Virus record (IMG/VR): IMGVR_UViG_3300045988_146916
Source: a virus
Strand: one strand, 5' to 3'
Length of the DNA: 11,313 nt
Notes under the pieces: model-generated
Database searches by the model: none
What the model saw: only the letters and a program-made list of their open reading frames with translations
What the model was told of the DNA's origin: nothing
Translations under genes and position numbers: made by a program
Shown: piece by piece, positions 383 through 11,313 of the stretch
How the letters are laid out: the number at the start of each line of letters is the position of its first letter
Position numbering within the stretch: the stretch's first letter is position 1

Positions 383-416
383 TTGATTTATTGGTGGAAT
401 GGAGGTAAGATATAAT
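383..416 (+). promoter_or_regulatory. Sigma-70-like promoter at the inner edge of ITR-L, firing inward (rightward)
   Basis: TTGATT (383-388), a 17-bp spacer, then TAAGAT (406-411), which overlaps a perfect TATAAT (411-416). ITR identity ends 2 nt after the TATAAT, about where +1 would be. Confidence 0.5.
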
Positions 417-508: not shown

Positions 509-524
509 GTTTCGACATTGAAAC
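509..524 (+). promoter_or_regulatory. Copy 1 of the 16-bp palindrome family (GTTTCGACATTGAAAC, one mismatch)
   Basis: Lies 14 nt upstream of the ATG at 539, with the SD GGAG (531-534) in between. Confidence 0.6.
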
Positions 525-538
525 AGAATAGGAGAAAT

Positions 539-580
539 ATGTTTGAATTAATCAAAGAGTTAGAAAATTATTTAAAATAA
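539..580 (+). CDS. 13-codon micro-ORF (MFELIKELENYLK), a possible leader peptide
   Basis: ATG is preceded by AGGAGA at the same 4-nt SD spacing as the portal gene, and by the same palindrome-SD-ATG layout. It is too short to support on coding statistics. Confidence 0.25.
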   Translation: MFELIKELENYLK

Positions 581-627
581 ATCATGGCTGACCTATCGGC
601 AATACGGGGAGAAAGAAGAGGTGCAAT

Positions 628-930
628 ATGGCATTAAACAAAGAACAGGCAAAGAAGATTCTCGAGGGGGGAATACCATTCGAGGGCGACAAAATCGAAC
701 TAAAAGAAAATGATGTATTTGTCATTAAAGAATATTATCCAATTCATGATTATTTCGCTCTTAGAATCAATGAAGCAGGCGACTTTATTTTCTCAAGTAA
801 TTCACTGACCAGATTAATAAAAGAATTTGGAACTGACGTTATTGGAACTTCCTTGAGATATACAGGACAGACAACTTTCAAAGGAACTGACGGAAAATCA
901 CGCAGAGTTAATAACTATGAAATAGCTTAA
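628..930 (+). CDS. Hypothetical early protein, 100 aa (function unknown; possibly a replication accessory or DNA-binding protein)
   Basis: ATG at 628 with SD AGAGG (617-621) at 6-nt spacing. It is the first substantial ORF downstream of the ITR promoter. I recognise no motif. Confidence 0.7.
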   Translation: MALNKEQAKKILEGGIPFEGDKIELKENDVFVIKEYYPIHDYFALRINEAGDFIFSSNSLTRLIKEFGTDVIGTSLRYTGQTTFKGTDGKSRRVNNYEIA

Positions 931-957
931 GGCAGGTTTCCATAAAATTCTAAAATA

Positions 958-996
958 GGCGTATTGGTTTAAGGCGGTTCGATTCCGCCAAACGCC
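958..996 (+). other. tRNA-like acceptor-stem/T-arm minihelix (possible RNA processing signal or atypical terminator)
   Basis: The 5' strand GGCGTAT (958-964) pairs with AAACGCC (990-996) at 6 of 7 positions. An 8-nt linker follows, then a T-arm GGCGG-TTCGATT-CCGCC (973-989) with canonical G53, T54, T55, C56, R57, A58 and C61 equivalents. The 3' acceptor strand abuts the T stem as in real tRNAs. TTT follows at 997-999. Confidence 0.4.
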
Positions 997-1012
997 TTTA
1001 AGGAGCGATAGA

Positions 1013-1594
1013 ATGAGAAAAAAGAAAAAATCTGGACTAACCAGAAAACAGAAAGATTTTGCAAGACGGCAAATTATAAAAGTAAATAAGCGACTTAAAG
1101 AAATGCGTAAACATTATAAACACGGAAACAAAGCGTTAGACTTTGCAGACTTATCCATTAAAAAAACAGGCGGAAAAAATGAATTTAAGCTTAAAAAAGG
1201 AGCTAGCAAATCTGATTATAATAAAATTATTAGAGCCACTCAAAAATTAATCAGTTCGCCATATTCAACCGAAACAGGCAGAAAAAAGGTAACTGAAAAA
1301 GCATTCAGAACATATGCGGAAAATCGAGGTCTTAACTATGACGAACTTAGAGAAAGTTTTGAAAAAATGGAAAATATACTTTCTTCAAATATTTTCGCTA
1401 AGCTCATGGAACAGTACGAACATGATTCCGATTCAGTCATGGAAACTATTCTAAATATGACAGAAACAGAAATGAAGTCAAGTGATATTATAAAATTAAT
1501 GAATGACTTTAATAAGACTAATAAGGACGTGAGCTTGCGCAATTATGTTGATGAATTTTTGGAAAACGAGGGGAAAAGATTTACAAGATATTGA
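1013..1594 (+). CDS. Candidate terminal (priming) protein, 193 aa
   Basis: SD AAGGAG (1000-1005) sits 7 nt before the ATG. The N-terminus is very basic (MRKKKKSGLTRKQKDFARRQIIKVNKRLKEMRKHYKH). The ORF lies immediately upstream of, and overlaps, the protein-primed polymerase gene, which is the conserved TP-then-pol order of phi29, Cp-1 and PRD1. The function is inferred from position only. Confidence 0.55.
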   Translation: MRKKKKSGLTRKQKDFARRQIIKVNKRLKEMRKHYKHGNKALDFADLSIKKTGGKNEFKLKKGASKSDYNKIIRATQKLISSPYSTETGRKKVTEKAFRTYAENRGLNYDELRESFEKMENILSSNIFAKLMEQYEHDSDSVMETILNMTETEMKSSDIIKLMNDFNKTNKDVSLRNYVDEFLENEGKRFTRY

Positions 1595-3668
1595 CTTTTC
1601 AATTAAAAGCACCAGACATAAAAAAGACATTGAATACTTTTGTAATGATATTTTTTGTTTCGACATCGAAACAAGTAACGGGTTTTTAAATAAAAATACA
1701 GGAATTGTAGAAGAATTTTCACATGAAACTTATAACAAAAATCCTAAATATTACAACGACTTTGAAAAAATATCTTTACCTTATCTATGGGGTTTTTCAA
1801 TAAATGATAATGTTTATGTCGGAAGAGAATTGAAATATGTCTTAGACTTAATGGATGAAATAGAAAAAAAAGTACCAGAATTAAAATTTATATATGTTCA
1901 CAATTTACCATTTGAATTTATGCACTTGCTCAATATTTTAATTCCGCAAGATGTTTTTGCAAGAGAAAAGAGAAAAGTTATCACATTTTCTTATAAGTCT
2001 TGGAAGTTTCGTTGTAGTTTAAAACTTGTAAATCTATCTCTTGATTCTTGGGCAATCAATAAAAATTTACCGGTAAAAAAACTAAAGGAGAATATGTCTT
2101 ACTTGGAACTAAGAACCCCTAGAACTGAATTACCGAAAGAGATTTATGACTATCAGACAAATGACGTGTTAGTGATGTATTATGGTTTACTGGAATATCG
2201 TGATAGATATAAGGACGTTTATCATATCCCCTTGACCCAGACAGGCGAGACTAGAATCGAATGCAGAAAAATTATGCGAAAAGAAACCGCTTACCGTAAC
2301 AAGTGTATATCATTAATTCCACGAACGCTTGACGATTTCGAAAAGTTAGTAAGGATTTTCGCAGGCGGTTACACGCACGCCAACCAGTTATATTCTTGCG
2401 AGATACTGGGAAATGTGAAAAGTAAGGATATAGCATCTAGTTATCCAACAGTCATGTTTCTGGAAAAATATCCTTTTTCCAGATTCGAAAAAACAAAACC
2501 GTTAGAAAAATATTTCGATAATGACAGATATTCATATATTATAAGAATCCGAGCCGATTACATAGAAAGTAAGTACTGGAATTCTTTCTTATCATCTAGT
2601 AAAGTAAACTCAATGAAAAAATGTAAATACGACAACGGTCGTATTATATCAGCTTACGATATTGACGTGACTTTGACAAATATTGACTATCATATTTTTC
2701 AAAAATGCTATGAAATAAAAAACGAGCAGATATTGAGTTTCGAAGTCAGCGTTAACCGTTACTTGAATGATTCACTTGTTAAATATATTCTTGAATTATA
2801 CAGAAATAAAACCGAACTAAAAAACATACCAGAAAAAAGGGATTTATATGCGCATATGAAACAGTTAATTAACGGTATGTTTGGAATGGCTGTAACAAAA
2901 GATATAACAGACGATATAGATTTCAATGAGTTAGTCGGATGGGAAACAGTATTACTCAATCCGACACGATTTAACGAAAAAATCGCAAAAATGAAAAAAG
3001 CACCAAGTAAAATCTTCACAACTTATCAATCGGGAGTGTGGGTTACTGCTTACGCTAGGCGTAATCTGTGGAGTGCGATAACCGCTCTTGATGATGATGT
3101 AGTCTATTGTGATACGGATTCCGTAAAATACATTGGAGAACATGAAGATTTTTTTGAAAATTACAACGCTAATATTTTAAAAAGAATCGAAGAAAGAGCT
3201 AATAATCTGGGATTAACGATTGACGATTATTCCCCTGCTGATAAGTTCGGGGAACGTCACACAATAGGATTTTTTGACACTGAAAAACCGTACGACCGAT
3301 TTATAACACTGGGTGCAAAAAAATACTTAGTCGAGCAGGAAGAATTCGACGAAACTTCTAAGACTTATAAGAAAAAACTTAAGTTAACGTTATCGGGCGT
3401 GAAAAAATCAGCGGTTAGTTCCATTAAAAAAATGGAAGATTTCAAAGACGGACTAACCTTTGATAGTAAAACATCTGGAAGATTGATTTCATATTATAAC
3501 GAAAATCAAACGCCTGTCACTTGGAAAAAAGGCGAATATGATGAATACTTTTCCGACTTTCAATATGGAATATGTCTCATGCCCTCGTCATATACTTTGG
3601 GGGTGACACCAGAATATTTAGAGTTAGTATTGGAAAATTCCAGACCAGTTACAGAAATTTTTAAATAA
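1545..3668 (+). CDS. Protein-primed family-B DNA polymerase, 707 aa
   Basis: Motifs are present in canonical order: ExoI FDIET, ExoII HNLPFEF, ExoIII YQTNDVLVM, motif A DIASSYPTVM, motif B KQLINGMFGM, motif C YCDTDS and KxY GAKKYL. The start is ATG 1545 or 1551, with no other in-frame ATG before ExoI. The SD is weak and the ORF overlaps the upstream ORF by 50 nt. Confidence 0.95.
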   Translation: MLMNFWKTRGKDLQDIDFSIKSTRHKKDIEYFCNDIFCFDIETSNGFLNKNTGIVEEFSHETYNKNPKYYNDFEKISLPYLWGFSINDNVYVGRELKYVLDLMDEIEKKVPELKFIYVHNLPFEFMHLLNILIPQDVFAREKRKVITFSYKSWKFRCSLKLVNLSLDSWAINKNLPVKKLKENMSYLELRTPRTELPKEIYDYQTNDVLVMYYGLLEYRDRYKDVYHIPLTQTGETRIECRKIMRKETAYRNKCISLIPRTLDDFEKLVRIFAGGYTHANQLYSCEILGNVKSKDIASSYPTVMFLEKYPFSRFEKTKPLEKYFDNDRYSYIIRIRADYIESKYWNSFLSSSKVNSMKKCKYDNGRIISAYDIDVTLTNIDYHIFQKCYEIKNEQILSFEVSVNRYLNDSLVKYILELYRNKTELKNIPEKRDLYAHMKQLINGMFGMAVTKDITDDIDFNELVGWETVLLNPTRFNEKIAKMKKAPSKIFTTYQSGVWVTAYARRNLWSAITALDDDVVYCDTDSVKYIGEHEDFFENYNANILKRIEERANNLGLTIDDYSPADKFGERHTIGFFDTEKPYDRFITLGAKKYLVEQEEFDETSKTYKKKLKLTLSGVKKSAVSSIKKMEDFKDGLTFDSKTSGRLISYYNENQTPVTWKKGEYDEYFSDFQYGICLMPSSYTLGVTPEYLELVLENSRPVTEIFK
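1657..1672 (+). promoter_or_regulatory. Copy 2 of the 16-bp palindrome (GTTTCGACATCGAAAC), inside the polymerase gene
   Basis: Perfect arms. It encodes the ExoI motif C-FDIET. Confidence 0.45.
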
Positions 3669-3671
3669 CTC

Positions 3672-3703
3672 TTGGCTTAATAAGTCAATTAGTGTATTAT
3701 AAT
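3672..3703 (+). promoter_or_regulatory. Candidate internal sigma-70-like promoter between the replication and morphogenesis modules
   Basis: TTGGCT (3672-3677), a 17-bp spacer, then TATTAT (3695-3700), which overlaps TATAAT (3698-3703). It lies in the 52-bp gap after the polymerase stop. Confidence 0.4.
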
Positions 3704-3720
3704 ATGTGGAGGATGACAAT

Positions 3721-3906
3721 ATGAATAAAGAAGAAAGAAAAAAATTAATCAATGCGAATTATGGACTGAACTATAACAAAAAATTAGAAAATAGTCACAT
3801 CGACTACAAACATTTAGAAAAAATCAATTTTCCAGAAAATGCAATTTACACGGATACCGATTCGATAATTGTAAATAGTTTCGACATCGAAACAGAAACG
3901 AGGTAA
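3721..3906 (+). CDS. Hypothetical 61-aa protein
   Basis: ATG 3721 is preceded by GGAGGA (3708-3713) at 7-nt spacing, so I prefer it to the GTG at 3706 in the ORF track. The C-terminus reads IYTDTDSIIVNSFDIETETR. Confidence 0.55.
   Translation: MNKEERKKLINANYGLNYNKKLENSHIDYKHLEKINFPENAIYTDTDSIIVNSFDIETETR
3878..3893 (+). promoter_or_regulatory. Copy 3 of the 16-bp palindrome (GTTTCGACATCGAAAC)
   Basis: Lies 15 nt upstream of the ATPase ATG (3909), with SD GAGG (3900-3903) in between. It also encodes SFDIET at the end of the 61-aa ORF. Confidence 0.6.
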
Positions 3907-3908
3907 CC

Positions 3909-4976
3909 ATGGAAAAATACTACTCATTAAAAGCAATTAAAAAATTAAATTGTGAGTACAATATCCTCTTAGGCGAAAGAGCGAATGGAAAAAGTTATTC
4001 AGTAAAAGACGATGTATTAAAGAATGCATGGCGGAATAAAGAAGAATTCATATATTTAAGGCGTTGGAAAGAGGACATTCGCAGGGTTTCAATAGTGAAC
4101 TACTTCGCTGATATGGACATAAAGAAATACACTCGGGGATGTTATGATTCAATCGAGGTTTACCAAGGTGGAATATATTTTGCAATTGAAGATCCGAACG
4201 GAAAGAAGAAAAGAGGACAGCGCATCGGCCATGCGATTCCGCTAACTGGGGAAACGCATTTCAAAAGCCAGTTATTTCCGAAAGTTACGACTGTTATTTA
4301 CGAGGAATTTATCACGGATTCGGGTTACTTAAGAAACGAACCCGATACTTTAATGTCACTTATTTCTACAATTTTCCGTAGACGTTCGGGAAGAGTGTTT
4401 CTCATCGGAAACACAATGTCGAGGGTATGTCCGTATTTCTCAGCATGGCAGTTGGAAAACGTACCACGCCAGAAAATAGGAACGATTGAAATTTATAAAT
4501 TCAATACAAAACGTCTTGACGAAAATAACGAACCGCTAATAATTAATATAGCTGTTGAATATTGCGAATCGACTGCATCATCATCAATGATTTTCGGCTC
4601 AACTTCCAGTATGGCAGTTGGCGGAGCATGGCAGACCGAAAATCAAAATACATTTACAGAACCGATAGAACATTTAAAAAAATTCTACAAGATTTTATTT
4701 GAACATGACACTTTTAAATTTTGTATTTTATTAGTCACTGGAAAAGATAAAATTCCTTTTTTAGCGGTTTATCCGTATACAAAAAAAGTAAATGTAAAAG
4801 ACTTTGACAGAATAATTTCAAATAAGCTTTACATGACCAGATTTTATAGCGAATGTCTGGGAGTAATTACTAAATATGACAACTTATTTTTACAGTTATT
4901 AAAACAGAATAAAATACAGTTTTCAGACAATCTAACTGGAACTGAATTTTATAGAATATTAAAAGAAAGGAGTTGA
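3909..4976 (+). CDS. DNA encapsidation (packaging) ATPase, phi29 gp16-like, 355 aa
   Basis: Walker A GERANGKS lies near the N-terminus and a Walker B-like VTTVIYEEF about 100 aa later. Its size is typical of podovirus gp16-type ATPases, and it is the only P-loop protein in the genome. Confidence 0.8.
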   Translation: MEKYYSLKAIKKLNCEYNILLGERANGKSYSVKDDVLKNAWRNKEEFIYLRRWKEDIRRVSIVNYFADMDIKKYTRGCYDSIEVYQGGIYFAIEDPNGKKKRGQRIGHAIPLTGETHFKSQLFPKVTTVIYEEFITDSGYLRNEPDTLMSLISTIFRRRSGRVFLIGNTMSRVCPYFSAWQLENVPRQKIGTIEIYKFNTKRLDENNEPLIINIAVEYCESTASSSMIFGSTSSMAVGGAWQTENQNTFTEPIEHLKKFYKILFEHDTFKFCILLVTGKDKIPFLAVYPYTKKVNVKDFDRIISNKLYMTRFYSECLGVITKYDNLFLQLLKQNKIQFSDNLTGTEFYRILKERS

Positions 4977-4980
4977 AAAC

Positions 4981-5187
4981 ATGGTTAGTATTGACGCATT
5001 AGCACCACAAAAAGAAAGTGAGGATAAAATCAAGGTAGTAAGTTCAGTGGAAGAAATAGCCGAAGACATTAAGAAAGACTTGCAATCAGAAAAGAAAGAA
5101 CCAGAAGACCCAGAAGAACCAGAAGAACCAGAAGACCCAGAAGAACCAGAAGAACCAGAAGAATTAGAAGAACCAGAAAAGGAGTGA
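4981..5187 (+). CDS. Highly acidic 68-aa protein with a PEEPE(D/E) repeat tail (scaffold-like or DNA mimic? function unknown)
   Basis: SD AAGGAG (4967-4972) sits 8 nt before the ATG. The C-terminal half is EPEDPEEPEEPEDPEEPEEPEELEEPEKE. Confidence 0.65.
   Translation: MVSIDALAPQKESEDKIKVVSSVEEIAEDIKKDLQSEKKEPEDPEEPEEPEDPEEPEEPEELEEPEKE
5101..5181 (+). repeat. Nine tandem 9-bp units (CCAGAAGAM) encoding the PEE/PED repeats
   Basis: Units in order: CCAGAAGAC, CCAGAAGAA x2, CCAGAAGAC, CCAGAAGAA x3, TTAGAAGAA, CCAGAAAAG. The first six units form a 27-bp higher-order repeat present twice. Confidence 0.9.
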
Positions 5188-5191
5188 CAAA

Positions 5192-5524
5192 ATGACTTTT
5201 TTATGTGCAGTAATTTTTATTTTAATTGATTTCATTACTGGAATGATAGGAGCTTTTCGCCAACACTGTTTCGATTCATCGAAAATGCGAGAGGGGTTGT
5301 TGAATAAACTTGGCGAATTGTGTGCATTGATTCTCGGATTTTGTACTGACAAGGCACTACCTTATTTAGACATCGGAACAAATATACCGGTATTCATGGC
5401 GATAGCTAGTTATATTTCATTAATGGAAATTTTCAGTACAATCGAAAATTTAGGAAGCATATCGCCTAAATTAGTACCTGAAGAATTAAAAAAATATTTC
5501 AAGAAAATAGAAAGCGAGGATTGA
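5192..5524 (+). CDS. Holin, 110 aa, three predicted TM segments (Phage_holin_4_1 / toxin-secretion holin-like)
   Basis: Three hydrophobic stretches: FLCAVIFILIDFITGMIGAF, LGELCALILGFCT and IPVFMAIASYISLMEIF. It has family-like motifs IDFITGM..A, SSK..EGL.NK and STIENLG, plus a charged C-terminus KKYFKKIESED. Confidence 0.75.
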   Translation: MTFLCAVIFILIDFITGMIGAFRQHCFDSSKMREGLLNKLGELCALILGFCTDKALPYLDIGTNIPVFMAIASYISLMEIFSTIENLGSISPKLVPEELKKYFKKIESED

Positions 5525-5528
5525 AAAC

Positions 5529-6671
5529 ATGAGCGATGTTAAACAGATTTATACAATTGTAAACGAGGTGGCAAAACAGGCTTGGGGAGAAAGTGCGTTA
5601 GCGGTAATTGATACCGCAAGTTTTATTTCTTTAGGGGATACGGTATTATCTTCCACTACAGATACTGACGTATTTTTAAATGCGTTAGTCGATAGAATCG
5701 GAAAAACGGTATTTTCAATGAGAAAATACAGTCGAAATAGAAACACAATGGCAAGAGAACCTTTTGAATACGGTTGTATTTTACAGAAGATTACCGTTGA
5801 ACCACCAGAAGCGAAAGAAAATAACGCTTGGAAAATCGGTGACGTTGCATATACTCCAACATATGCACCAGTTATTAAAAGCAACGTGAAGCAGAAAATT
5901 TTTAATAAAGTTTCAACTTGGGAGATTGATGTCACTATTCCAGATTATCAGCTTAGAACTGCTTTCACCAATGAGACAGAAATGGCGGTTTTAATTGACG
6001 CTATCTTCACATCAATGGATAACCGCATGGAACAGGCATTAGAAAGTTGTGGAGATTTAACAAGAGCGAATTTCATCGCAAGAAAAATTAAATCAGCGAA
6101 GCCTTGCGGTGCTATTAACCTCTTGCATAATTACAACACATTAACAAACCAGACTTTAACAGTTGACACCGCTTTAATGAATAAGGAGTTTTTAAGATAT
6201 GCAATTGGTCAGATTAATCTTTGGATTCCGAGGATGGCGAAAATATCTACCTTATTCAATGAAGATGGATTTCATCGTTTCACGCCAGATGACCGCCTTG
6301 TGGTAAATATCTTAAATGATTTTGTAGAGCAAGTGAAAACAGTTTTGCAGTCAGATACTTGGCATGATGAACTTGTAAAACTTCCATTATATGAATCCGT
6401 ACCATATTGGCAGGGAACGGGAACGGATTATGCATTCGATTCAACGAGTGCCATTAATGTAAAAATTGATGATGCCACAACCGTAGAAGAAAGCGGTATT
6501 ATAGCGGTGTTTTACGACTATGATGCAATGGGAACTTCCATTGTAGAAAGACGTAGTTCTTCAGAGCGGAATAACAAGGATGAATATACCGATTACTATA
6601 ATAAAGCCAACATGGGTTATTTTAATGATATGTCGGAAAATGGTATTGTGTTCTACATGAAAGAAGTTTAA
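5529..6671 (+). CDS. Major capsid protein, 380 aa
   Basis: Size, position upstream of the connector gene, a good SD (GAGGA, 8-nt spacing), and the strongest intrinsic terminator in the genome immediately after it. In my recollection its N-terminal region resembles the major head proteins of small podoviruses. Not verified by any search. Confidence 0.75.
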   Translation: MSDVKQIYTIVNEVAKQAWGESALAVIDTASFISLGDTVLSSTTDTDVFLNALVDRIGKTVFSMRKYSRNRNTMAREPFEYGCILQKITVEPPEAKENNAWKIGDVAYTPTYAPVIKSNVKQKIFNKVSTWEIDVTIPDYQLRTAFTNETEMAVLIDAIFTSMDNRMEQALESCGDLTRANFIARKIKSAKPCGAINLLHNYNTLTNQTLTVDTALMNKEFLRYAIGQINLWIPRMAKISTLFNEDGFHRFTPDDRLVVNILNDFVEQVKTVLQSDTWHDELVKLPLYESVPYWQGTGTDYAFDSTSAINVKIDDATTVEESGIIAVFYDYDAMGTSIVERRSSSERNNKDEYTDYYNKANMGYFNDMSENGIVFYMKEV

Positions 6672-6678
6672 CAATTAG

Positions 6679-6711
6679 ATACTGGGGTATTAATTGCCCC
6701 AGTATTTTTTT
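6679..6711 (+). terminator. Rho-independent terminator after the capsid gene
   Basis: A 9-bp stem, ATACTGGGG (6679-6687) pairing with CCCCAGTAT (6697-6705), a 9-nt loop, then a T7 run (6705-6711). Confidence 0.8.
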
Positions 6712-6714
6712 AGA

Positions 6715-6730
6715 GTTTCGATGTCGAAAC
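6715..6730 (+). promoter_or_regulatory. Copy 4 of the 16-bp palindrome (GTTTCGATGTCGAAAC)
   Basis: Lies 4 nt after the terminator T-run and 13 nt upstream of the portal ATG (6744), with SD GGAG (6736-6739) in between. Confidence 0.6.
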
Positions 6731-6743
6731 GGAAAGGAGAAAA

Positions 6744-7637
6744 ATGTCCAAGACGATTATAGAAAAGATTATCGAATCAGAACAAAAAGAGATGTCACTT
6801 GCGGATATTTATGTTGATAATGTTAATTTGCTTTTTGAAAAATGTGTAAGAATTTTTAAATGGAATGAAGTTCCTAAAAATTTACCGCAAAGAGAAATTG
6901 AAAAGTACGCTATTGCACTTGGTTTTTGTGGTTTCGTAAATGATAAAAAATGCGGATATATGGTATCGAATGGTGGGATGTCTGGACCGACACAGTACGA
7001 TGATGTGTTTAAAAATTTTACATATTCCAGACCAACCGCAAAGGGTGGAACGGTCGCAATAGGTAAAGAGTGTGTAATAATACGAAATACTTCTATGATG
7101 AATCCATTATCTGGATTAATCAGAAGAACCGCAAGCCAGTTAGCACACGCTGACATCACACTAAGAGCGGCTCTTATAAATTACCGTGCAAACGAAGTTC
7201 TTTCTGCTGAAGATGATTCCACCGCTGAAAGTATTAACTTGTATTACAGTTCTTTATATGAGGGAAAATTAAAAGCTATTGTGGATTCTGGATTAATAGA
7301 CGGGGTTAAAAATTTATCAAGTTCGAAGTCATATGCAGATTTATTAAAATTGACCGATGTTAAAAATGAAATCATGCGTTCGTTTTTTGCAGAAATCGGA
7401 ATTAGACAAAAGTCTGATAAAAGAGAACGTCTTGTAACGGAAGAAGTGGAAAGCGATTCGATGATGTTATTGTTTAATATCCATGATATGTTAGAACAAA
7501 GACAAAAAGCATGTGAAGAAATTAATAATATTTTTAATTTGAATATGTCTGTAGAATTATCAGAAGAATGGAATTATTTAAAAAAGGAAAGAGGTGTTAA
7601 AGATGAAATTAGCGGAATATCTGGAAAAGACGATTGA
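6744..7637 (+). CDS. Head-tail connector / portal (upper collar), phi29 gp10-like, 297 aa
   Basis: The size is typical (about 300 aa). FKWNEVPKNLPQREIEKYAIALGFCGFV...SNGGMSG and RERLVTEEVESD...ACEEINNIFNLNMSV resemble conserved gp10 connector blocks as I remember them. Confidence 0.85.
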   Translation: MSKTIIEKIIESEQKEMSLADIYVDNVNLLFEKCVRIFKWNEVPKNLPQREIEKYAIALGFCGFVNDKKCGYMVSNGGMSGPTQYDDVFKNFTYSRPTAKGGTVAIGKECVIIRNTSMMNPLSGLIRRTASQLAHADITLRAALINYRANEVLSAEDDSTAESINLYYSSLYEGKLKAIVDSGLIDGVKNLSSSKSYADLLKLTDVKNEIMRSFFAEIGIRQKSDKRERLVTEEVESDSMMLLFNIHDMLEQRQKACEEINNIFNLNMSVELSEEWNYLKKERGVKDEISGISGKDD

Positions 7638-8355
7638 CCAACCTTTTATATTAGATACGATTTTTAAAACTTGCTTTGCGAATCTACCGGATGATTTCAA
7701 TAACAAGATTACTGACTTCGCAAAAGAAAACTATGGAATGAGAACTATAAGGGGTAGTATTACTGTATGTCGAACCGATGAAGAAATCAAGGACAAAATC
7801 AATGCATTGTGTACGACCGTAGCATTTGACAACGCTTATGGCTTAAATGTGCTTTATAAAACACTGAACCTCGATTATAATCCAATTGAGAATTATAATA
7901 TGAAAGAAGAAATAACCGACACTGGAAAAGTCAGTCATTTAAATATCACCGATTCCACGAACATGGAAAAAAATACTGGAACAGTCTCCAGTGTGAATAG
8001 TAATTCTATGAACAATGGCGAAACAGTTAATACAAGCGTTGCCAGTAAAACCCCTTTTGATGATGATGCCATGACAGATACAGAAAAAAACGTGACTACA
8101 GGAAATGCTGTTGTAAATTCTGAATCTGGAAACGCAACCACAACTAATAATCTGAACAATGAAACTGTCTTTCATAATACAGATGATAACGTGGAAGAAC
8201 GGAACTTGAAACAGACGCATACCAGAACTGGAAACATCGGAATAATGACCACACAAGACATGATAAAACAGGAGCGAGAAGTCGCTGAATTTCATTTTTT
8301 ATCAATATTCACAAGAAAAATAATCGGAGCTATTTGTCTGGGGGTGTATTTATGA
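7603..8355 (+). CDS. Lower collar / tail tube protein (phi29 gp11-like), 250 aa
   Basis: ATG 7603 with SD GGAAAGAGG ending 8 nt upstream is preferred to the track's GTG at 7594. It follows the connector gene. It has LDYNPIENY and TGNIGIMTTQDMIKQE motifs typical of lower collar proteins, and a central N/T/S-rich segment. Confidence 0.6.
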   Translation: MKLAEYLEKTIDQPFILDTIFKTCFANLPDDFNNKITDFAKENYGMRTIRGSITVCRTDEEIKDKINALCTTVAFDNAYGLNVLYKTLNLDYNPIENYNMKEEITDTGKVSHLNITDSTNMEKNTGTVSSVNSNSMNNGETVNTSVASKTPFDDDAMTDTEKNVTTGNAVVNSESGNATTTNNLNNETVFHNTDDNVEERNLKQTHTRTGNIGIMTTQDMIKQEREVAEFHFLSIFTRKIIGAICLGVYL

Positions 8356-8795
8356 ATCTGATTTTTTATGTTAACGTTAGCGAACGTTACGCATTAAATA
8401 AAAATTTAACTGAAATTTTTCGGACAACTGGAAAATTAAAAGAAAATACTGATATTATAAATCCTATTTATATTTTGAAAAAATCAAATAACTTACAATC
8501 TGTAAATTACTGTTTCGATGTCGATACAGGACGTTATTATTTTATTCAGAATGTGAAAAAAAATATAGGCGGATTTTGGGAAGTGGAGTGTTCAGTTGAT
8601 GTATTAATGAGTTTTCGAGACGGAATAAATAATCTTGACATCGTGGCGAAAAGGCAGGAAAATACTTATAATACTTATCTGAACGACCCAGAATTTAAAA
8701 CGTACAATTATCCGAGAATCACACAAAAGAAATTTCCGATTGGATTTACAAGTGATTCTCATATCATTCTTACGGTGGCAGGGGGTGTATCTTAA
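8352..8795 (+). CDS. Structural protein, 147 aa, resembling the N-terminal domain of tail-knob (phi29 gp9-like) proteins
   Basis: ATG 8352 overlaps the upstream stop (ATGA), so I prefer it to the track's TTG at 8334. The pattern NY.F....G.YYF...V........VE..VDVL.SF recalls the gp9 N-terminal region. That resemblance is from memory. Confidence 0.45.
   Translation: MNLIFYVNVSERYALNKNLTEIFRTTGKLKENTDIINPIYILKKSNNLQSVNYCFDVDTGRYYFIQNVKKNIGGFWEVECSVDVLMSFRDGINNLDIVAKRQENTYNTYLNDPEFKTYNYPRITQKKFPIGFTSDSHIILTVAGGVS
8512..8527 (+). promoter_or_regulatory. Copy 5 of the 16-bp palindrome (GTTTCGATGTCGATAC, one mismatch), intragenic
   Basis: Encodes CFDVDT in the 147-aa ORF, in the same codon phase as the other coding copies. 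Confidence 0.35.
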
Positions 8796-10537
8796 TGGCG
8801 GTTAAACGTGAATATATTAAATTTAAAAATGGTGATTGTAAAATGTGTGGTTCGGGGTGTGGTGTCATGTTTGACAACGCCAGCACGACCGCTAAAAATG
8901 CTAGCGGTCAAAATTTTACTATTTATTATGAAAATAAATACACCTATCCGAATTATCGGGGTGATGATATACGTCAGTTCATAAAAATGAATGACGTAAA
9001 AGCAGGGGATATAATTTACACCTTAAAAAATGGAGCGTATTGTAAAGTTGAAACCATAGAAAAAACGGAGAGTCGGTCTTATTCATATTATAGAACCGTT
9101 CATAGTTCATTAACAAAAGACGGATTAATAAATAAATTGAAAAGTTTATATAATACGGACGCTTATAATTATGTCGTTGATTATTACAGTGCGACACTTC
9201 AATTAATTGACCAGTACGGAAACAATGTTACTTCAAAAATTCATATCAGCAACACCGAGGGATTGGCTGTTTTAAGAAATAATTTACCGATGAAAATTTA
9301 CATACATCCGAATTTATCAACGCCAGACGTGCCCTCAACTGGAGTTAATTCTTTTTTAAGTAATGTCGTAGACCCAGACCATTTAACGACCGAATATTAT
9401 AGCCAGACAGATGAGAGAAACCCCTTTATATTTACACCCGATGCAAGTCGGATAACATTCGGCTGGATTAATGGAGCATTTGCTTATGAATTTGCGAAGT
9501 ACACCGAAAATTTACAAGAAAAAAATGAGGGCGAGGACACAGGCGGCGAATCTACTCCAGGTGGTCAGAACGGAAATTTTGACGATACGTCAGACAATAT
9601 TGATGTCCCAACTTTACCAGCAACAAATGCAAGTTCTTGTGGTATGGTAAAAATGTATGAGTTGGATTTAGGACAGACAAAGGCACTCGCTAGTTATTTA
9701 TGGAGCGGAGCTAAAGAGTTTTACGAGAATTTAACAAAAATGTTCAATGACCCTATGGACAGTATCATCTCATTATCACTAGCACCGATTCAGCCGAGCG
9801 TCGGAAGTTCGACTATTATTGAGATATGCAAGTATGCTATTAATAATGTAACTGGCAATCCTTTAACTTCTCAATATGCTAGTTTGAATTGCGGAACTGT
9901 CAAAATAAGTCCGTACTGGGGCAATGCCTTAGACTATGCGCCATATACAAAGGCTAGTATATATTTGCCTTTTATCGGTACGCAAGAATTAAATATTGAT
10001 GATGTTATGAATCGTACTGTAGGGGTTATTTACAACATTGACTTGCTTTCTGGAGCTTGCGCTTGCTTGATTACTTGTGACGGTTCCGTTATGTATAATT
10101 TCTCGGGAAATGTTATTTCTCAAATTCCCGTATCTGGAAAAAACGCATTGGAAATGTATAAGTCGGTTATTAGTGCAGTAACGAACACTGCCTTAGCGAT
10201 TGGAACTGGGGCAGGTGGCGTTGCCTTGGCTGGGGATGTTGTATCGAATGGTCTTTCTGTCATGGGTTCAAAAATGACCGTTCAAAGGGGTGGTACAATT
10301 TCCGCTACTAATGGAGTGCTTGGCGTAAAGTTTCCATACATTACAATTTTAAGGGCGAACCAGTCTTTGCCAGCTGACTTTCATTACTTCAAGGGGTATC
10401 CGAGCAATATTACAGGTAAAGTATCGTCATTCAGCGGCTATACAGAGGTCGAATACGTTCATGTTACTGGAATAAATGCAACTGAAAACGAGTTAGAAAT
10501 GATTGAGAATATCTTGAAAGAGGGATTCATAATTTGA
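8795..10537 (+). CDS. Tail protein, 580 aa: novel N-terminal domain, acidic/Gly linker, and a tail-knob (gp9-like) C-terminal region
   Basis: The ATG overlaps the upstream stop (TAATG). A C-x2-C-x3-C cluster lies at 8837-8860. The linker EKNEGEDTGGESTPGGQNGNFDDTSDN falls at about 9515-9640. A Gly/Ala-rich hydrophobic segment ALAIGTGAGGVALAG lies at about 10162-10270. The C-terminal YFKGY...VEYVHVTG..ATENELEMIENILKEG pattern resembles the end of gp9-type knob proteins. Confidence 0.65.
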   Translation: MAVKREYIKFKNGDCKMCGSGCGVMFDNASTTAKNASGQNFTIYYENKYTYPNYRGDDIRQFIKMNDVKAGDIIYTLKNGAYCKVETIEKTESRSYSYYRTVHSSLTKDGLINKLKSLYNTDAYNYVVDYYSATLQLIDQYGNNVTSKIHISNTEGLAVLRNNLPMKIYIHPNLSTPDVPSTGVNSFLSNVVDPDHLTTEYYSQTDERNPFIFTPDASRITFGWINGAFAYEFAKYTENLQEKNEGEDTGGESTPGGQNGNFDDTSDNIDVPTLPATNASSCGMVKMYELDLGQTKALASYLWSGAKEFYENLTKMFNDPMDSIISLSLAPIQPSVGSSTIIEICKYAINNVTGNPLTSQYASLNCGTVKISPYWGNALDYAPYTKASIYLPFIGTQELNIDDVMNRTVGVIYNIDLLSGACACLITCDGSVMYNFSGNVISQIPVSGKNALEMYKSVISAVTNTALAIGTGAGGVALAGDVVSNGLSVMGSKMTVQRGGTISATNGVLGVKFPYITILRANQSLPADFHYFKGYPSNITGKVSSFSGYTEVEYVHVTGINATENELEMIENILKEGFII

Positions 10538-10680
10538 GTGATTTAGAAATTGACTTAGCAATTGAAAAAGACGCTAACGAGTTTATTAATTTTATCGAGT
10601 GGGCGGTTGATAATAATTTGATGATAAGACAAGAAGACTGGAACGCTTACTTAGAATTGATAAAAAATAAAGAGGGGTGA
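10534..10680 (+). CDS. Hypothetical acidic 48-aa protein (TTG start)
   Basis: TTG 10534 is preceded by AAGAGGG (ending 10524) at 9-nt spacing and overlaps the stop of the tail gene. The frame is open to TGA 10678-10680, which lies inside the terminator stem. It falls below the ORF-track length cut-off. Confidence 0.4.
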   Translation: MSDLEIDLAIEKDANEFINFIEWAVDNNLMIRQEDWNAYLELIKNKEG

Positions 10681-10693
10681 AAACCCCTCTTTT
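10669..10693. terminator. Bidirectional rho-independent terminator between convergent genes
   Basis: AAAGAGGGG (10669-10677) pairs with CCCCTCTTT (10684-10692) around a TGAAAA loop (GAAA tetraloop if T10678-A10683 pair). T-rich tracts follow on both strands: CTTTTCT on + and TTATTTTTTA on -. Confidence 0.8.
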
Positions 10694-10855
10694 CTAACTT
10701 ACAATTGTTATTGTTCCGTTATCTAATGAATCTTTAGAATAAGTGGTTGTGCTACCGTCATCAAAAATAACCACTAAACAACCGTTTATAAATGTCACGT
10801 TTTTTACCTCGTCAATCGTGTAAAATGTTGATTCTGTTTTTACTATTAATTTCAT
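10694..10855 (-). CDS. Hypothetical 53-aa protein (MKLIVKTESTFYTIDEVKNVTFINGCLVVIFDDGSTTTYSKDSLDNGTITIVS)
   Basis: Translated by hand from the minus strand and absent from the ORF track. ATG is at 10855-10853 and TAG at 10696-10694. It exactly fills the space between the right ITR promoter plus palindrome and the bidirectional terminator. Confidence 0.5.
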   Translation of the reverse strand: MKLIVKTESTFYTIDEVKNVTFINGCLVVIFDDGSTTTYSKDSLDNGTITIVS

Positions 10856-10869
10856 ATCCTTTTACCTTG

Positions 10870-10885
10870 GTTTCGACGTCGAAAC
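10870..10885 (-). promoter_or_regulatory. Copy 6 of the 16-bp palindrome (GTTTCGACGTCGAAAC, perfect)
   Basis: Lies 10 nt inside the ITR-R boundary, about +5 to +25 relative to the ITR promoter. It is 14 nt upstream of the minus-strand ATG at 10855. Confidence 0.6.
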
Positions 10886-10895
10886 TCCTTTCCTT

Positions 10896-11313
10896 TGATT
10901 ATATCTTACCTCCATTCCACCAATAAATCAACCCATTTTCAAATATTCGCACTAGAAAGATTATTTCATAAACTATCAGACAATTCAGAATCTTACATGA
11001 CTTGTTAGACAATTCAGAATCTTACATGACTTATCAGACAATTCAGACTATTCAATCAATTCAGACAATAAAGCAAGTTGTCTGACAATTCGAATCTTCA
11101 AATGTTTCACGTGAAACATATTGATATTGCACTTCGAACTTCATTCTTCGGGTTTGCCCTTTGTAAAAATATCCGTCCGCTTGCTTTATCACGTTAGCGC
11201 ATTAAAGCGTTAATGCGTTAATGCGTTAATGCGTTAGCACGTTAACACGTTAACACTTTACCACGTTAAAGTGGGAAAGGATTCCGAACGTATGTTCTAT
11301 AGAGGGGGTATCC
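10896..11313. repeat. Right inverted terminal repeat (ITR-R), 418 bp
   Basis: Exact reverse complement of 1-418, ending at the last base of the window. If a 3-nt indel is allowed (TCA, left 419-421), another 7 nt (AAGGAAA) also match. Confidence 0.95.
10898..10931 (-). promoter_or_regulatory. Sigma-70-like promoter at the inner edge of ITR-R, firing inward (leftward)
   Basis: Mirror image of 383-416, with the same TTGATT-17-TAAGAT/TATAAT arrangement on the minus strand. Confidence 0.5.

Follow-up and report, generated by a model that had tools for sequence, protein, structure and literature searches.

Dispersed palindromes of a very small phi29-like gut phage as probable operators of a ParB/Noc-like regulator that it has lost

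The DNA analysed here, referred to as the window, is the whole of IMG/VR virus record IMGVR_UViG_3300045988_146916, a complete linear genome of 11,313 bp with perfect inverted terminal repeats (ITRs) of 418 bp, along which a 16-bp palindrome, GTTTCGAYRTCGAAAC, is dispersed in six copies. From the comparison of this genome with its relatives and from a structural model, the palindrome is probably the DNA operator of a phage-encoded regulator of about 200 amino acids (aa) that resembles ParB and Noc, and the window probably represents a derepressed derivative that retains the operators as orphans. The phage is a very small phi29-like podophage. Its genes, all of which lie on the plus strand except one, include a PolB of the protein-primed type (PHROG DNA polymerase, E=3e-49), a gp16-type packaging ATPase and a holin, together with a major capsid protein and a connector, both of the phi29 type. 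Contigs that are nearly identical to the window come from human gut metagenomes. Relatives are cited below by label (L002 and so on) where they have to be told apart.

Four copies match GTTTCGAYRTCGAAAC exactly (starting at 1657, 3878, 6715 and 10870), with 0 expected from 200 shuffles, and the remaining two, at 509 (GTTTCGACATTGAAAC) and 8512 (GTTTCGATGTCGATAC), carry one mismatch. A first-pass annotation of this DNA had located all six copies correctly and had stated that a 16-mer should not recur in this way by chance, which holds, with the refinement that two of the six copies are inexact. When up to three mismatches are allowed, the window contains 7 matches against 0.24 expected, including an unrelated three-mismatch match at 5364. 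The copies are placed as follows:

509-524: copy 1, GTTTCGACATTGAAAC, one mismatch (C11T), 14 nt 5' of the remnant of the regulator gene
1657-1672: copy 2, exact, inside the PolB gene, where it encodes F39-D-I-E-T43 of the ExoI motif
3878-3893: copy 3, exact, 15 nt 5' of the ATG of the gp16-type packaging ATPase gene
6715-6730: copy 4, exact, 3' of the capsid terminator and 5' of the portal gene (ATG at 6744)
8512-8527: copy 5, GTTTCGATGTCGATAC, one mismatch, in frame in a 153-aa open reading frame (ORF), at CFDVDT
10870-10885: copy 6, perfect palindrome GTTTCGACGTCGAAAC, between a putative right ITR promoter and the Shine-Dalgarno sequence (SD) of a minus-strand 53-aa gene

Four of the six copies are intergenic, and two lie in frame within genes. 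The gap between the palindrome and the start codon measures 14 nt for the ATG at 539, 15 nt at 3909, 13 nt at 6744 and 14 nt at 10855 on the minus strand, and each of these gaps holds an SD-like purine run. The annotated arrangement of four copies 12-15 nt before an ATG with the SD in between is therefore sound (13-15 nt as measured), except that the ATG at 539 opens an ORF of only 13 codons. The copy that had been listed as following the capsid terminator does so, 3 nt after the T-run, but it is identical with the pre-portal copy and not an additional one.

Within its own clade, the window shares about 88% DNA identity with L002, 90% with L006, 98.7% with L005 and 99.7% with L007, L002 being about 12% diverged from the window and 13-17% from L006, while the PolB proteins of a sister clade are 46-50% identical to that of the window. 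Where relatives could be linked to a host, this was only through metagenome-assembled genome bins, mostly of Clostridia, and none of these is close to the window. Among deposited phages searched for close DNA relatives, only the sister-clade genome MT836125 matches, at the ITR tip, and an IMG/VR search by capsid returned no match. The palindrome is kept at every homologous place in the same-clade contigs (L002 and L005-L022), so that the conservation the annotation had named as a check is found. Between the window and L002, 1 of 65 arm positions differs (13 per site) versus 100 of 300 positions in ungapped 30-nt flanks, and between the window and L006, 2 of 78 versus 135 of 360; indels in the flanks, and unrelated sequence 5' of the pre-ATPase site, raise the flank counts, so this contrast should be taken as an indication and not as an exact figure. 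Variation within the clade falls mostly at positions 8-10, where all four pyrimidine-purine (Y-R) centres are found (CA, TG, CG and TA), and in L006 three sites are altered, each solely at position 10. Among relatives, copy 5 varies most; L002, L006 and L011 have it as a perfect palindrome. Copy 3 is kept, together with its downstream sequence, in the window, L002 and L006 despite upstream sequences that are unrelated among the three.

Inside genes, it is apparently the DNA motif that constrains the coding sequence, and not vice versa. The ExoI copy is written with the codons TTC GAC ATC, which are the rarer C-ending ones (32%, 41% and 17% of their families in the window genome); the same residues are encoded by TTT GAT ATT in L003 and by TTT GAC ATT in L004. 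In the sister clade, copies within PolB encode F-D-V-E-H at a place where the window PolB has different residues.

Palindromes of this kind extend well beyond the clade of the window. Sister-clade genomes hold 4-8 copies each of GTTCGAYRTCGAAC ([T/A]GTTCGAYRTCGAACA), in forms such as TGTTCGAYRTCGAACA and GTTCGACGTCGAAC; a 12-bp core, TTCGAYRTCGAA, is common to the window and sister motifs, and the outer pair is swapped on both arms. The sister-clade sites are asymmetric at their ends, with A at position 16 in 95% of sites and T at position 1 in 37%. At the pre-portal site of this clade, and only there (L036 7385-7436; also L025, L032 and L033), a promoter-like TTGACA-N13-15-TATAAA abuts the palindrome and contains a half-copy of the motif (CGACGTCGG) in its spacer. 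At least nine further clades of gut phages of 11-15 kb have their own dispersed palindrome of the 6-YR-6 or 6-N4-6 type; these include (GG)TCTACTYRAGTAGA(CC), TTTAGTYRACTAAA, TTTTAAYRTTAAAA, TCTAATYRATTAGA, TTTAATCAATTAAA, TCCGAACGTTCGGA, GTCCAAN4TTGGAC (13-17 copies) and TTGTAGN4CTACAA. Clades that carry the regulator gene have 4-17 copies per genome. Counted over 21 genomes, namely the regulator carriers plus the gene-less window and L002, 65 of the 159 sites lie just 5' of an SD and start codon, another 43 are located elsewhere between genes, and genes contain the other 51; many sites are directly 3' of an intrinsic terminator. Because the arms are identical within one genome, the central 2-4 nt (Y-R) are free to vary and the sequence is wholly changed between clades, the pattern points to a dimer operator, that is, to a sequence-specific dimeric factor co-evolving with its sites.

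A candidate for this factor emerges from an iterated profile search of all ORFs of the genomes compared, which retrieves one family of about 200 aa that is almost confined to palindrome-bearing genomes. Among 118 genomes of at least 10 kb, gene and palindrome are both present in 19 and both absent from 93, whereas the palindrome occurs alone in 4 and the gene alone in 2 (Fisher p=4e-16, a value that overstates the support, as the genomes share phylogeny). The palindrome-only genomes are the window, L007 and L002, from which the gene has been lost, and L026, a truncated contig; of the two gene-only genomes, L004 has sites after all, close to its ends, and L153 has none. In a PolB tree, the carriers fall into at least six lineages among non-carriers; L105, for instance, has gene and sites, and its neighbours L106 and L112 have neither. 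The family comprises 227 clusters at 50% identity in a library of 1.8 billion proteins. Pfam gives no domain for it above threshold, and the annotated collections of deposited phages and plasmids contain no homologue with a name. An operator stands just 5' of the regulator gene in L005, L006, L054, L104, L004, L117 and L120, and in the close relatives of the window the left terminal promoter has the regulator as its first gene, the palindrome lying between this promoter and the ribosome-binding site. The small ORFs of the window (100, 61, 53 and 48 aa), which the annotation had proposed to test for binding, match no helix-turn-helix (HTH) or other family and do not track the palindrome.

The conserved segment of the family, F-[LI]-G-x-S-[KR]-x-x-[LI]-x-K...A, is a probable HTH. 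An 80-sequence profile matches Cro HTH sequences in the PDB (E=0.0026), and a minority of 80 members give weak Pfam matches, below the curated cut-offs where these were compared, to HTH_3 (11 members), LacI (3), DUF3102 (3), HTH_ParB (2; best match weak, E=0.0044) and P22_Cro (2); sequence searches of the PDB with shallow alignments of the regulator gave no informative match. An AF2 model built from 80 diverse sequences (pLDDT 83.4) is ranked by Foldseek closest to Spo0J-parS (4umk; probability 0.90-0.98, rmsd 3.6-4.0 A over about 100 columns) and Noc-NBS (7ol9; 0.97), followed by Noc (7ng0) and Thermus Spo0J (1vz0), with P1 ParB, VirB and SopB lower; the top four have probabilities of 0.75-0.98 but weak E-values of 0.2-1 and TM scores of 0.3-0.4. 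An earlier, low-confidence model from 21 near-identical sequences (pLDDT 57) gave the same ranking. With E-values this weak, a ParB/Noc-type DNA-binding domain is the probable fold class, assigned from the ranking of the matches and their probability. In the second (recognition) helix, residues vary with palindrome type, and the two clades of the TTCGA type share N-x-x-K there. From co-occurrence, phylogenetic interspersion and this variation of the recognition helix, we infer that the regulator binds the palindrome sequence-specifically. The protein would be built of a ParB/Noc-type HTH core, then an acidic linker and, at the C terminus, a small helical domain, and would work without a CTPase domain or a ParA partner: no GERR-like motif is present in 23 family members, no ParBc (CTPase domain) match appears in the scanned members among the 25 most frequent families listed, and the gene tables of the window and its relatives contain no ParA-type ATPase, only the gp16 packaging ATPase.

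A resemblance to partition proteins also fits a physical role for the same protein and sites. They would then form a centromere or tether that, with parS in the ITRs, would partition, condense or anchor the linear genome, as in a plasmid-like carrier state, spore trapping or membrane-bound replication, much as Noc-NBS tethers DNA. Each ITR contains the following element:

196-211, left ITR, mirrored at 11103-11118: perfect canonical parS TGTTTCACGTGAAACA, separate from the palindrome (consensus TGTTNCACGTGAAACA, PMC7022226)

The palindrome itself was considered as a canonical parS and rejected, as GTTTCGAYRTCGAAAC and the sister form TGTTCGAYRTCGAACA differ from TGTTNCACGTGAAACA at two positions per half-site in the best register. 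The parS sequence of the ITRs recurs in most related clades, and terminators of L120 have it as their stem; in L039-L046 and L052-L053, genomes without a regulator gene, parS is itself the dispersed pre-SD palindrome. A tether is suggested by the likeness of the regulator model to ParB, Spo0J and Noc bound to palindromes, by a weak match (E=1e-5, below cut-off) of one family member to the model of the Borrelia partition protein PF49, by the perfect parS in each ITR, by the entrapment of phi29 in spores through five parS and Spo0J (PMC2731898) and by the deposition of some phi29-like elements as plasmids (PMC11476376). The sites are also spaced more evenly than random ones (p=0.012 in the window, p=0.0055 in L036), but this may simply reflect gene boundaries and is not seen in L054. 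Moreover, the protein lacks a CTPase domain and a GERR motif, these genomes of 11-13 kb have no ParA gene, their sites gather at gene starts and promoters instead of forming clusters, and the layout at the regulator's own gene looks autoregulatory. We consider a tether unlikely, and an operator of a transcriptional regulator remains the favoured reading.

Near its left end, the window holds what is left of the regulator gene:

539-580, plus strand: remnant of the regulator gene, 13 codons, MFELIKELENYLK followed by a stop

The intact gene, which encodes 208 aa in L005 and 199 aa in L006 and stands behind the homologue of copy 1, starts with MFELI and ends with KELENYLK, and the product of the window ORF is MFELI joined to KELENYLK. 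An in-frame deletion has fused the first 5 codons to the last 8, its junction lying within an 8-bp sequence, ATTAATCA, that is found at both ends of the intact gene. L007 and L008 carry the same deletion, while the absence of the gene from L002 goes back to a different left-end rearrangement; two extra right-end genes of L002 (104 and 67 aa) are unrelated to the regulator. The family profile detects no member in the six-frame translation of the window (best E=0.1, an acidic repeat). Since the regulator gene is cut to a 13-codon remnant, the six window sites are probably orphan operators of a lost regulator. The loss is recent, leaving the sites no time to decay, because the window is 98.7% identical to the gene-carrying L005. 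Gene-less genomes are common in nature (4 of the 6 window-clade contigs that reach the left end), so the regulator should be dispensable for propagation; a negative regulator therefore fits better than an essential activator.

In the mechanism that we propose, the operator would be double-stranded DNA with two 8-bp half-sites (GTTTCGAY and RTCGAAAC) read by a protein dimer. In intact relatives, the regulator would be transcribed first from the left terminal promoter, and it should repress itself, because the operator lies between this promoter and its own ribosome-binding site. The same operator recurs in the equivalent place by the right terminal promoter, and also where the packaging/capsid block and the portal/tail block begin and within two genes. 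By blocking RNA polymerase that starts or passes there, the bound dimer would act as a genome-wide repressor or silencer, causing autorepression and early shut-off at the terminal promoters and a roadblock at the block heads and inside PolB. The regulator would not be required for lytic growth, and the window phage would still respond to a regulator supplied by a related co-infecting or resident phage. The sites, their conservation, the deletion and the tie between gene and palindrome are observed, as is the fold class within the limits given above, whereas we infer the sign of the regulation and its biological purpose. Among the roles that the annotation had listed, a dimer operator, serving as a binding site for a phage regulator or as a roadblock, is the one favoured by the evidence.

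Two features of the window bear on where transcription would start and stop in relation to the sites:

411-416, plus strand: -10 element (TATAAT) of a putative left ITR promoter, read from the sequence; mirrored at 10898-10903, minus strand
6677-6711, plus strand: intrinsic terminator after the major capsid gene, directly 5' of copy 4; region -28.9 kcal/mol, z -5.3

Copy 6 starts 12 nt after the putative right -10 and would span about +6 to +21 if this promoter is real. The annotation had placed it at about +5 to +25 of the right ITR promoter, which is only putative: it has a poor -35, and neither ITR promoter is among the calls of a consensus promoter scan. For internal promoters beside the sites, the scan does no better than shuffled sequence (58 calls versus 45.8 expected). 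In L005, the palindrome directly follows the ITR promoter and the terminal repeat extends through the palindrome at both ends, and because of this the ancestral layout of each end would be putative promoter -10, 12-16 nt, palindrome, SD and gene. A segment of about 90 nt at 419-505, between the left ITR and copy 1, is present in the window, L002 and L006 and not in L005, and has no Rfam match.

The position of many sites just 5' of the ribosome-binding site could also suggest an RNA element, a hairpin that acts as translational operator, processing site or 5' stabiliser. Such an element would account for the four of six window copies that lie 13-15 nt 5' of start codons and for the 65 of 159 sites across clades that precede an SD; the copy at 509 still pairs, via G-U, and part of the asymmetry, at position 10 in L006 and at position 16 in the sister clade, goes with the strand that is mostly transcribed. 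The annotated hairpin of 6 bp with a 4-nt loop does fold in silico, at about -5 to -6.5 kcal/mol, but its stability does not differ from that of shuffled sequence (z -0.5 to -1.6). The arms are identical rather than covarying, the loop varies, and about a third of the sites are intragenic. The fixed order of palindrome, SD and ATG holds for about 40% of sites across clades and is not universal, as the homologous site in L003, L023 and L004 lies before a terminator, distant from the SD. In L054, the asymmetric centre CTGA is always on the plus strand across regions of both gene orientations, and is hence independent of gene direction; the window motif is nearly symmetric and cannot decide this point. 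Rfam gives no match, and the element tracks a protein of a DNA-binding fold. An RNA element is thus improbable, and with it the annotated roles of translational operator, RNase III/Y site or 5' stabiliser, given the shuffled-level stability, the invariant arms, the intragenic copies and the orientation in L054.

A protein other than the candidate regulator might also read the palindrome as DNA. TGTCGAA is embedded in the motif, and the palindrome could consist of a pair of overlapping inverted 0A boxes for host Spo0A, or, in the sister clade, for the phage's own Spo0A_C-like protein, which would shut the phage down in sporulating cells, as happens in phi29. TGTCGAA occurs five times in the window, four of them within palindromes (one each in four of the six copies), the relatives are binned with Clostridia, and in phi29 six consensus 0A boxes lie close to its promoters and to the ends of its DNA (PMC2731898). 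A Spo0A_C protein (PF08769, 36 bits) is encoded by most genomes of the sister clade and keeps an E-R-x-x-R pattern, which we take to be the residues with which the recognition helix of Spo0A contacts bases. The gene for this protein, of 100 aa, overlaps the 3' end of the regulator gene (L182 447-1405; L189 755-1704), an overlap that suggests translational coupling, and the resulting pair is reminiscent of KorB and KorA. Nevertheless, the CG-centred perfect palindrome, which is the commonest sister form, and the TA-centred variants have no exact box, a 7-mer box cannot explain the conservation of both full arms, and the palindromes at equivalent positions elsewhere (TTTAGT.., TCTACT.., GTCCAA..) are box-free. 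Spo0A binds paired boxes as direct repeats, whereas the half-boxes here are inverted and overlapping. In phi29 and Nf, the footprinted boxes are paired with a gap of 3 bp (PMC2731898). The clade of the window and L004 have the motif without a Spo0A_C gene. A Spo0A-type binder is, on this evidence, quite improbable as the reader of the palindrome.

Finally, the palindromes might have no regulatory function and be features of recombination or mobility, either microhomology linkers for module swaps or self-spreading elements. Mosaic joints do coincide with them: ahead of the pre-ATPase copy, the window, L002 and L006 have sequences unrelated to one another, the left end exists in four architectures, each of them joined at a palindrome, and the ITR of L005 ends with the palindrome. 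Stoperators are, likewise, known points of deletion and recombination in the phages L5 and D29 (PMC5712189). Such an origin leaves unexplained the tie to one protein family, the clade-specific changes, the adjacency to the SD and the selection on coding sites, while joints at conserved operators are an expected by-product of the regulator and its operators. We regard a purely recombinational role as highly improbable.

Besides the shared phylogeny behind the co-occurrence test and the weak structural E-values, several observations weigh against operators of a phage-encoded regulator. L153 has the gene and no detectable palindrome. L002 lacks the gene and yet keeps five of five sites perfect at about 12% divergence, which needs either a recent loss or a function independent of the phage's own protein. 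Which promoter the sites would control is not evident, given how near they are to the SD and how often they directly follow a terminator, and the strand asymmetries (positions 16 versus 1 in the sister clade, position 10 in L006) are not predicted by a symmetric dimer. Lastly, some clades have only parS-type palindromes at the same pre-SD positions and no regulator gene; these clades may use host ParB for the same purpose.

Phages of the phi29 group are the textbook example of strictly lytic minimal phages, and the control of phi29 genes involves the early proteins p4 and p6. It is exerted also through host Spo0A and Spo0J (PMC2731898): five parS (Spo0J) and six 0A boxes (Spo0A) near promoters and ends silence the lytic cycle and aid carriage in spores (PMC2731898). 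The first-pass statement that phi29-like phages have no described equivalent does not hold in view of these dispersed sites. The window group resembles phi29, the type phage of the wider phi29-like group that includes it, in having dispersed short sites, and the window also in the parS of each ITR, but the phi29 binders are host proteins, whereas the window-type palindrome tracks a phage-encoded protein and changes by clade. In the literature, we found no description of the regulator family or its operators in phi29-like phages, and the words palindrome, ParB and parS are absent from a 2024 review of these phages (PMC11476376).

Of the systems outside this group, KorB with its operators and Noc/ParB with their palindromes are the nearest in molecular terms. 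KorB and its operator OB on the IncP plasmid RK2 would share with the phage system a ParB-type domain, a 16-bp palindrome in multiple copies on a small replicon and global repression that includes the repressor's own operon (features of KorB from PMC11790492). The core of OB (within GGGATATTTTAGCGGCTAAAAGGA, PMC11790492) resembles the arms of the phage type TTTAGTYRACTAAA. KorB differs from the phage protein in its N-terminal CTPase domain, its sliding clamp, its cooperation with KorA and its partnership with the ParA protein IncC. KorB operators can be promoter-proximal or far from promoters (PMC11790492). The phage sites lie mostly between promoter or terminator and SD, and not upstream of the -35. 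The pairs ParB/Spo0J-parS and Noc-NBS have in common with the phage system an 8+8 bp palindrome with a central pyrimidine-purine step, and provide the best matches to the model (4umk and 7ol9); NBS sites are dispersed as well. ParB and Noc are, however, host proteins with CTPase domains that spread on or tether DNA, whereas the phage protein, of about 200 aa, is confined to these phages.

The stoperators of Cluster A mycobacteriophages offer the closest parallel for the loss of the regulator. In L5, two dozen sites for the repressor gp71, mostly in short intergenic gaps within operons, block transcription (PMC5712189, PMC9283540), and the stoperator consensus varies among subclusters, with recombination between sites (PMC5712189, PMC9283540). 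D29 has lost its repressor by a microhomology deletion, keeps the sites, is lytic and responds to repressor supplied in trans (PMC5712189). The window is like D29 in that its regulator was deleted at an 8-bp microhomology, its sites were kept and its mosaic joints fall at sites; as with stoperators, the sites are mostly intergenic (4 of 6 in the window, 108 of 159 across the 21 genomes). Judging from their position, after promoters or terminators and before the SD, a bound repressor would stop an elongating polymerase here too. Stoperators, in contrast, are asymmetric 13-bp sites in one orientation to transcription, bound by a monomeric two-domain repressor, whereas the present sites are symmetric palindromes that go with a protein resembling a ParB DNA-binding domain. 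Cluster A phages are temperate, integrating siphoviruses, and the window group consists of protein-primed phi29-like podoviruses without an integrase.

The window has other features that lie beside the palindromes or apart from them. A leader, GCTGACCTATCGGCAATACGGGGAG, at 586-612 leads into the SD of the 100-aa gene and is conserved; it recurs in L002, L003 and L004 and twice in L036, where each copy is about 20-30 nt 3' of a palindrome (parS-type or TTCGA-type). The 61-aa ORF at 3721-3906 (plus strand) aligns in order to PolB motif B (KxxxNxxYG), motif C (YTDTDS) and then FDIET, the last encoded by the palindrome. It looks like a collapsed polB remnant and is restricted to window-type genomes, unrelated sequence taking its place in L002 and L006. 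Repeats at 61-120 and 253-356 of the left ITR (mirrored on the right), consisting of 8-bp tandem repeats of the TAACGCAT type and three 29-bp repeats that contain GAATTGTCTGA, may be binding sites for replication proteins. Between the 100-aa and terminal-protein genes, at 958-1003, a tRNA-like minihelix combines an acceptor-like stem (AGGCGT/ACGCCT) with a T-arm that is perfect, GGCGGTTCGATTCCGCC; it is not called as a tRNA by ARAGORN, and its Rfam matches are weak and far below gathering scores. Neither a pRNA nor a tRNA was found in the window. The PolB gene holds both arms of a 27-nt inverted repeat, 96% complementary and 1.3 kb apart (1986-2012 and 3349-3375). A 9-bp tandem repeat at 5096-5187 encodes (P-E-E/D)n in a 68-aa ORF between the ATPase and holin genes, and its copy number differs among near-identical relatives, giving products of 57-71 aa.

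With regard to its kind, the proposed system belongs to the known global regulators with dispersed operators. Its form would be new: a protein like the ParB DNA-binding domain without a CTPase domain, clade-specific palindromes, protein-primed podophages as carriers and recurrent natural loss. Many clades of small gut relatives combine a self-encoded, predicted DNA-binding protein with 4-17 matching sites over 11-15 kb, and this pair diversifies clade by clade, as immunity systems do, while the regulator is repeatedly lost in nature. More tentatively, and with considerable doubt on our part, the regulator, its operators and the ITR parS might together constitute a module for silencing and inheritance, which would allow these phages to persist as quiescent linear episomes or to be carried in spores, in a temperate-like manner without integration. 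The window would then be an escape mutant of the clear-plaque type, comparable with D29 and still under the immunity imposed by regulator-carrying relatives. If the operator reading is true, the family (227 clusters) would supply a compact natural series of ParB-type domains with altered DNA specificity, and the system would offer abundant uncultured phages of Clostridia a way, open to testing, to become dormant, to confer immunity to superinfection or to enter a carrier state. It would also be a warning that the protein for a conserved site may be encoded outside the genome that bears the site.

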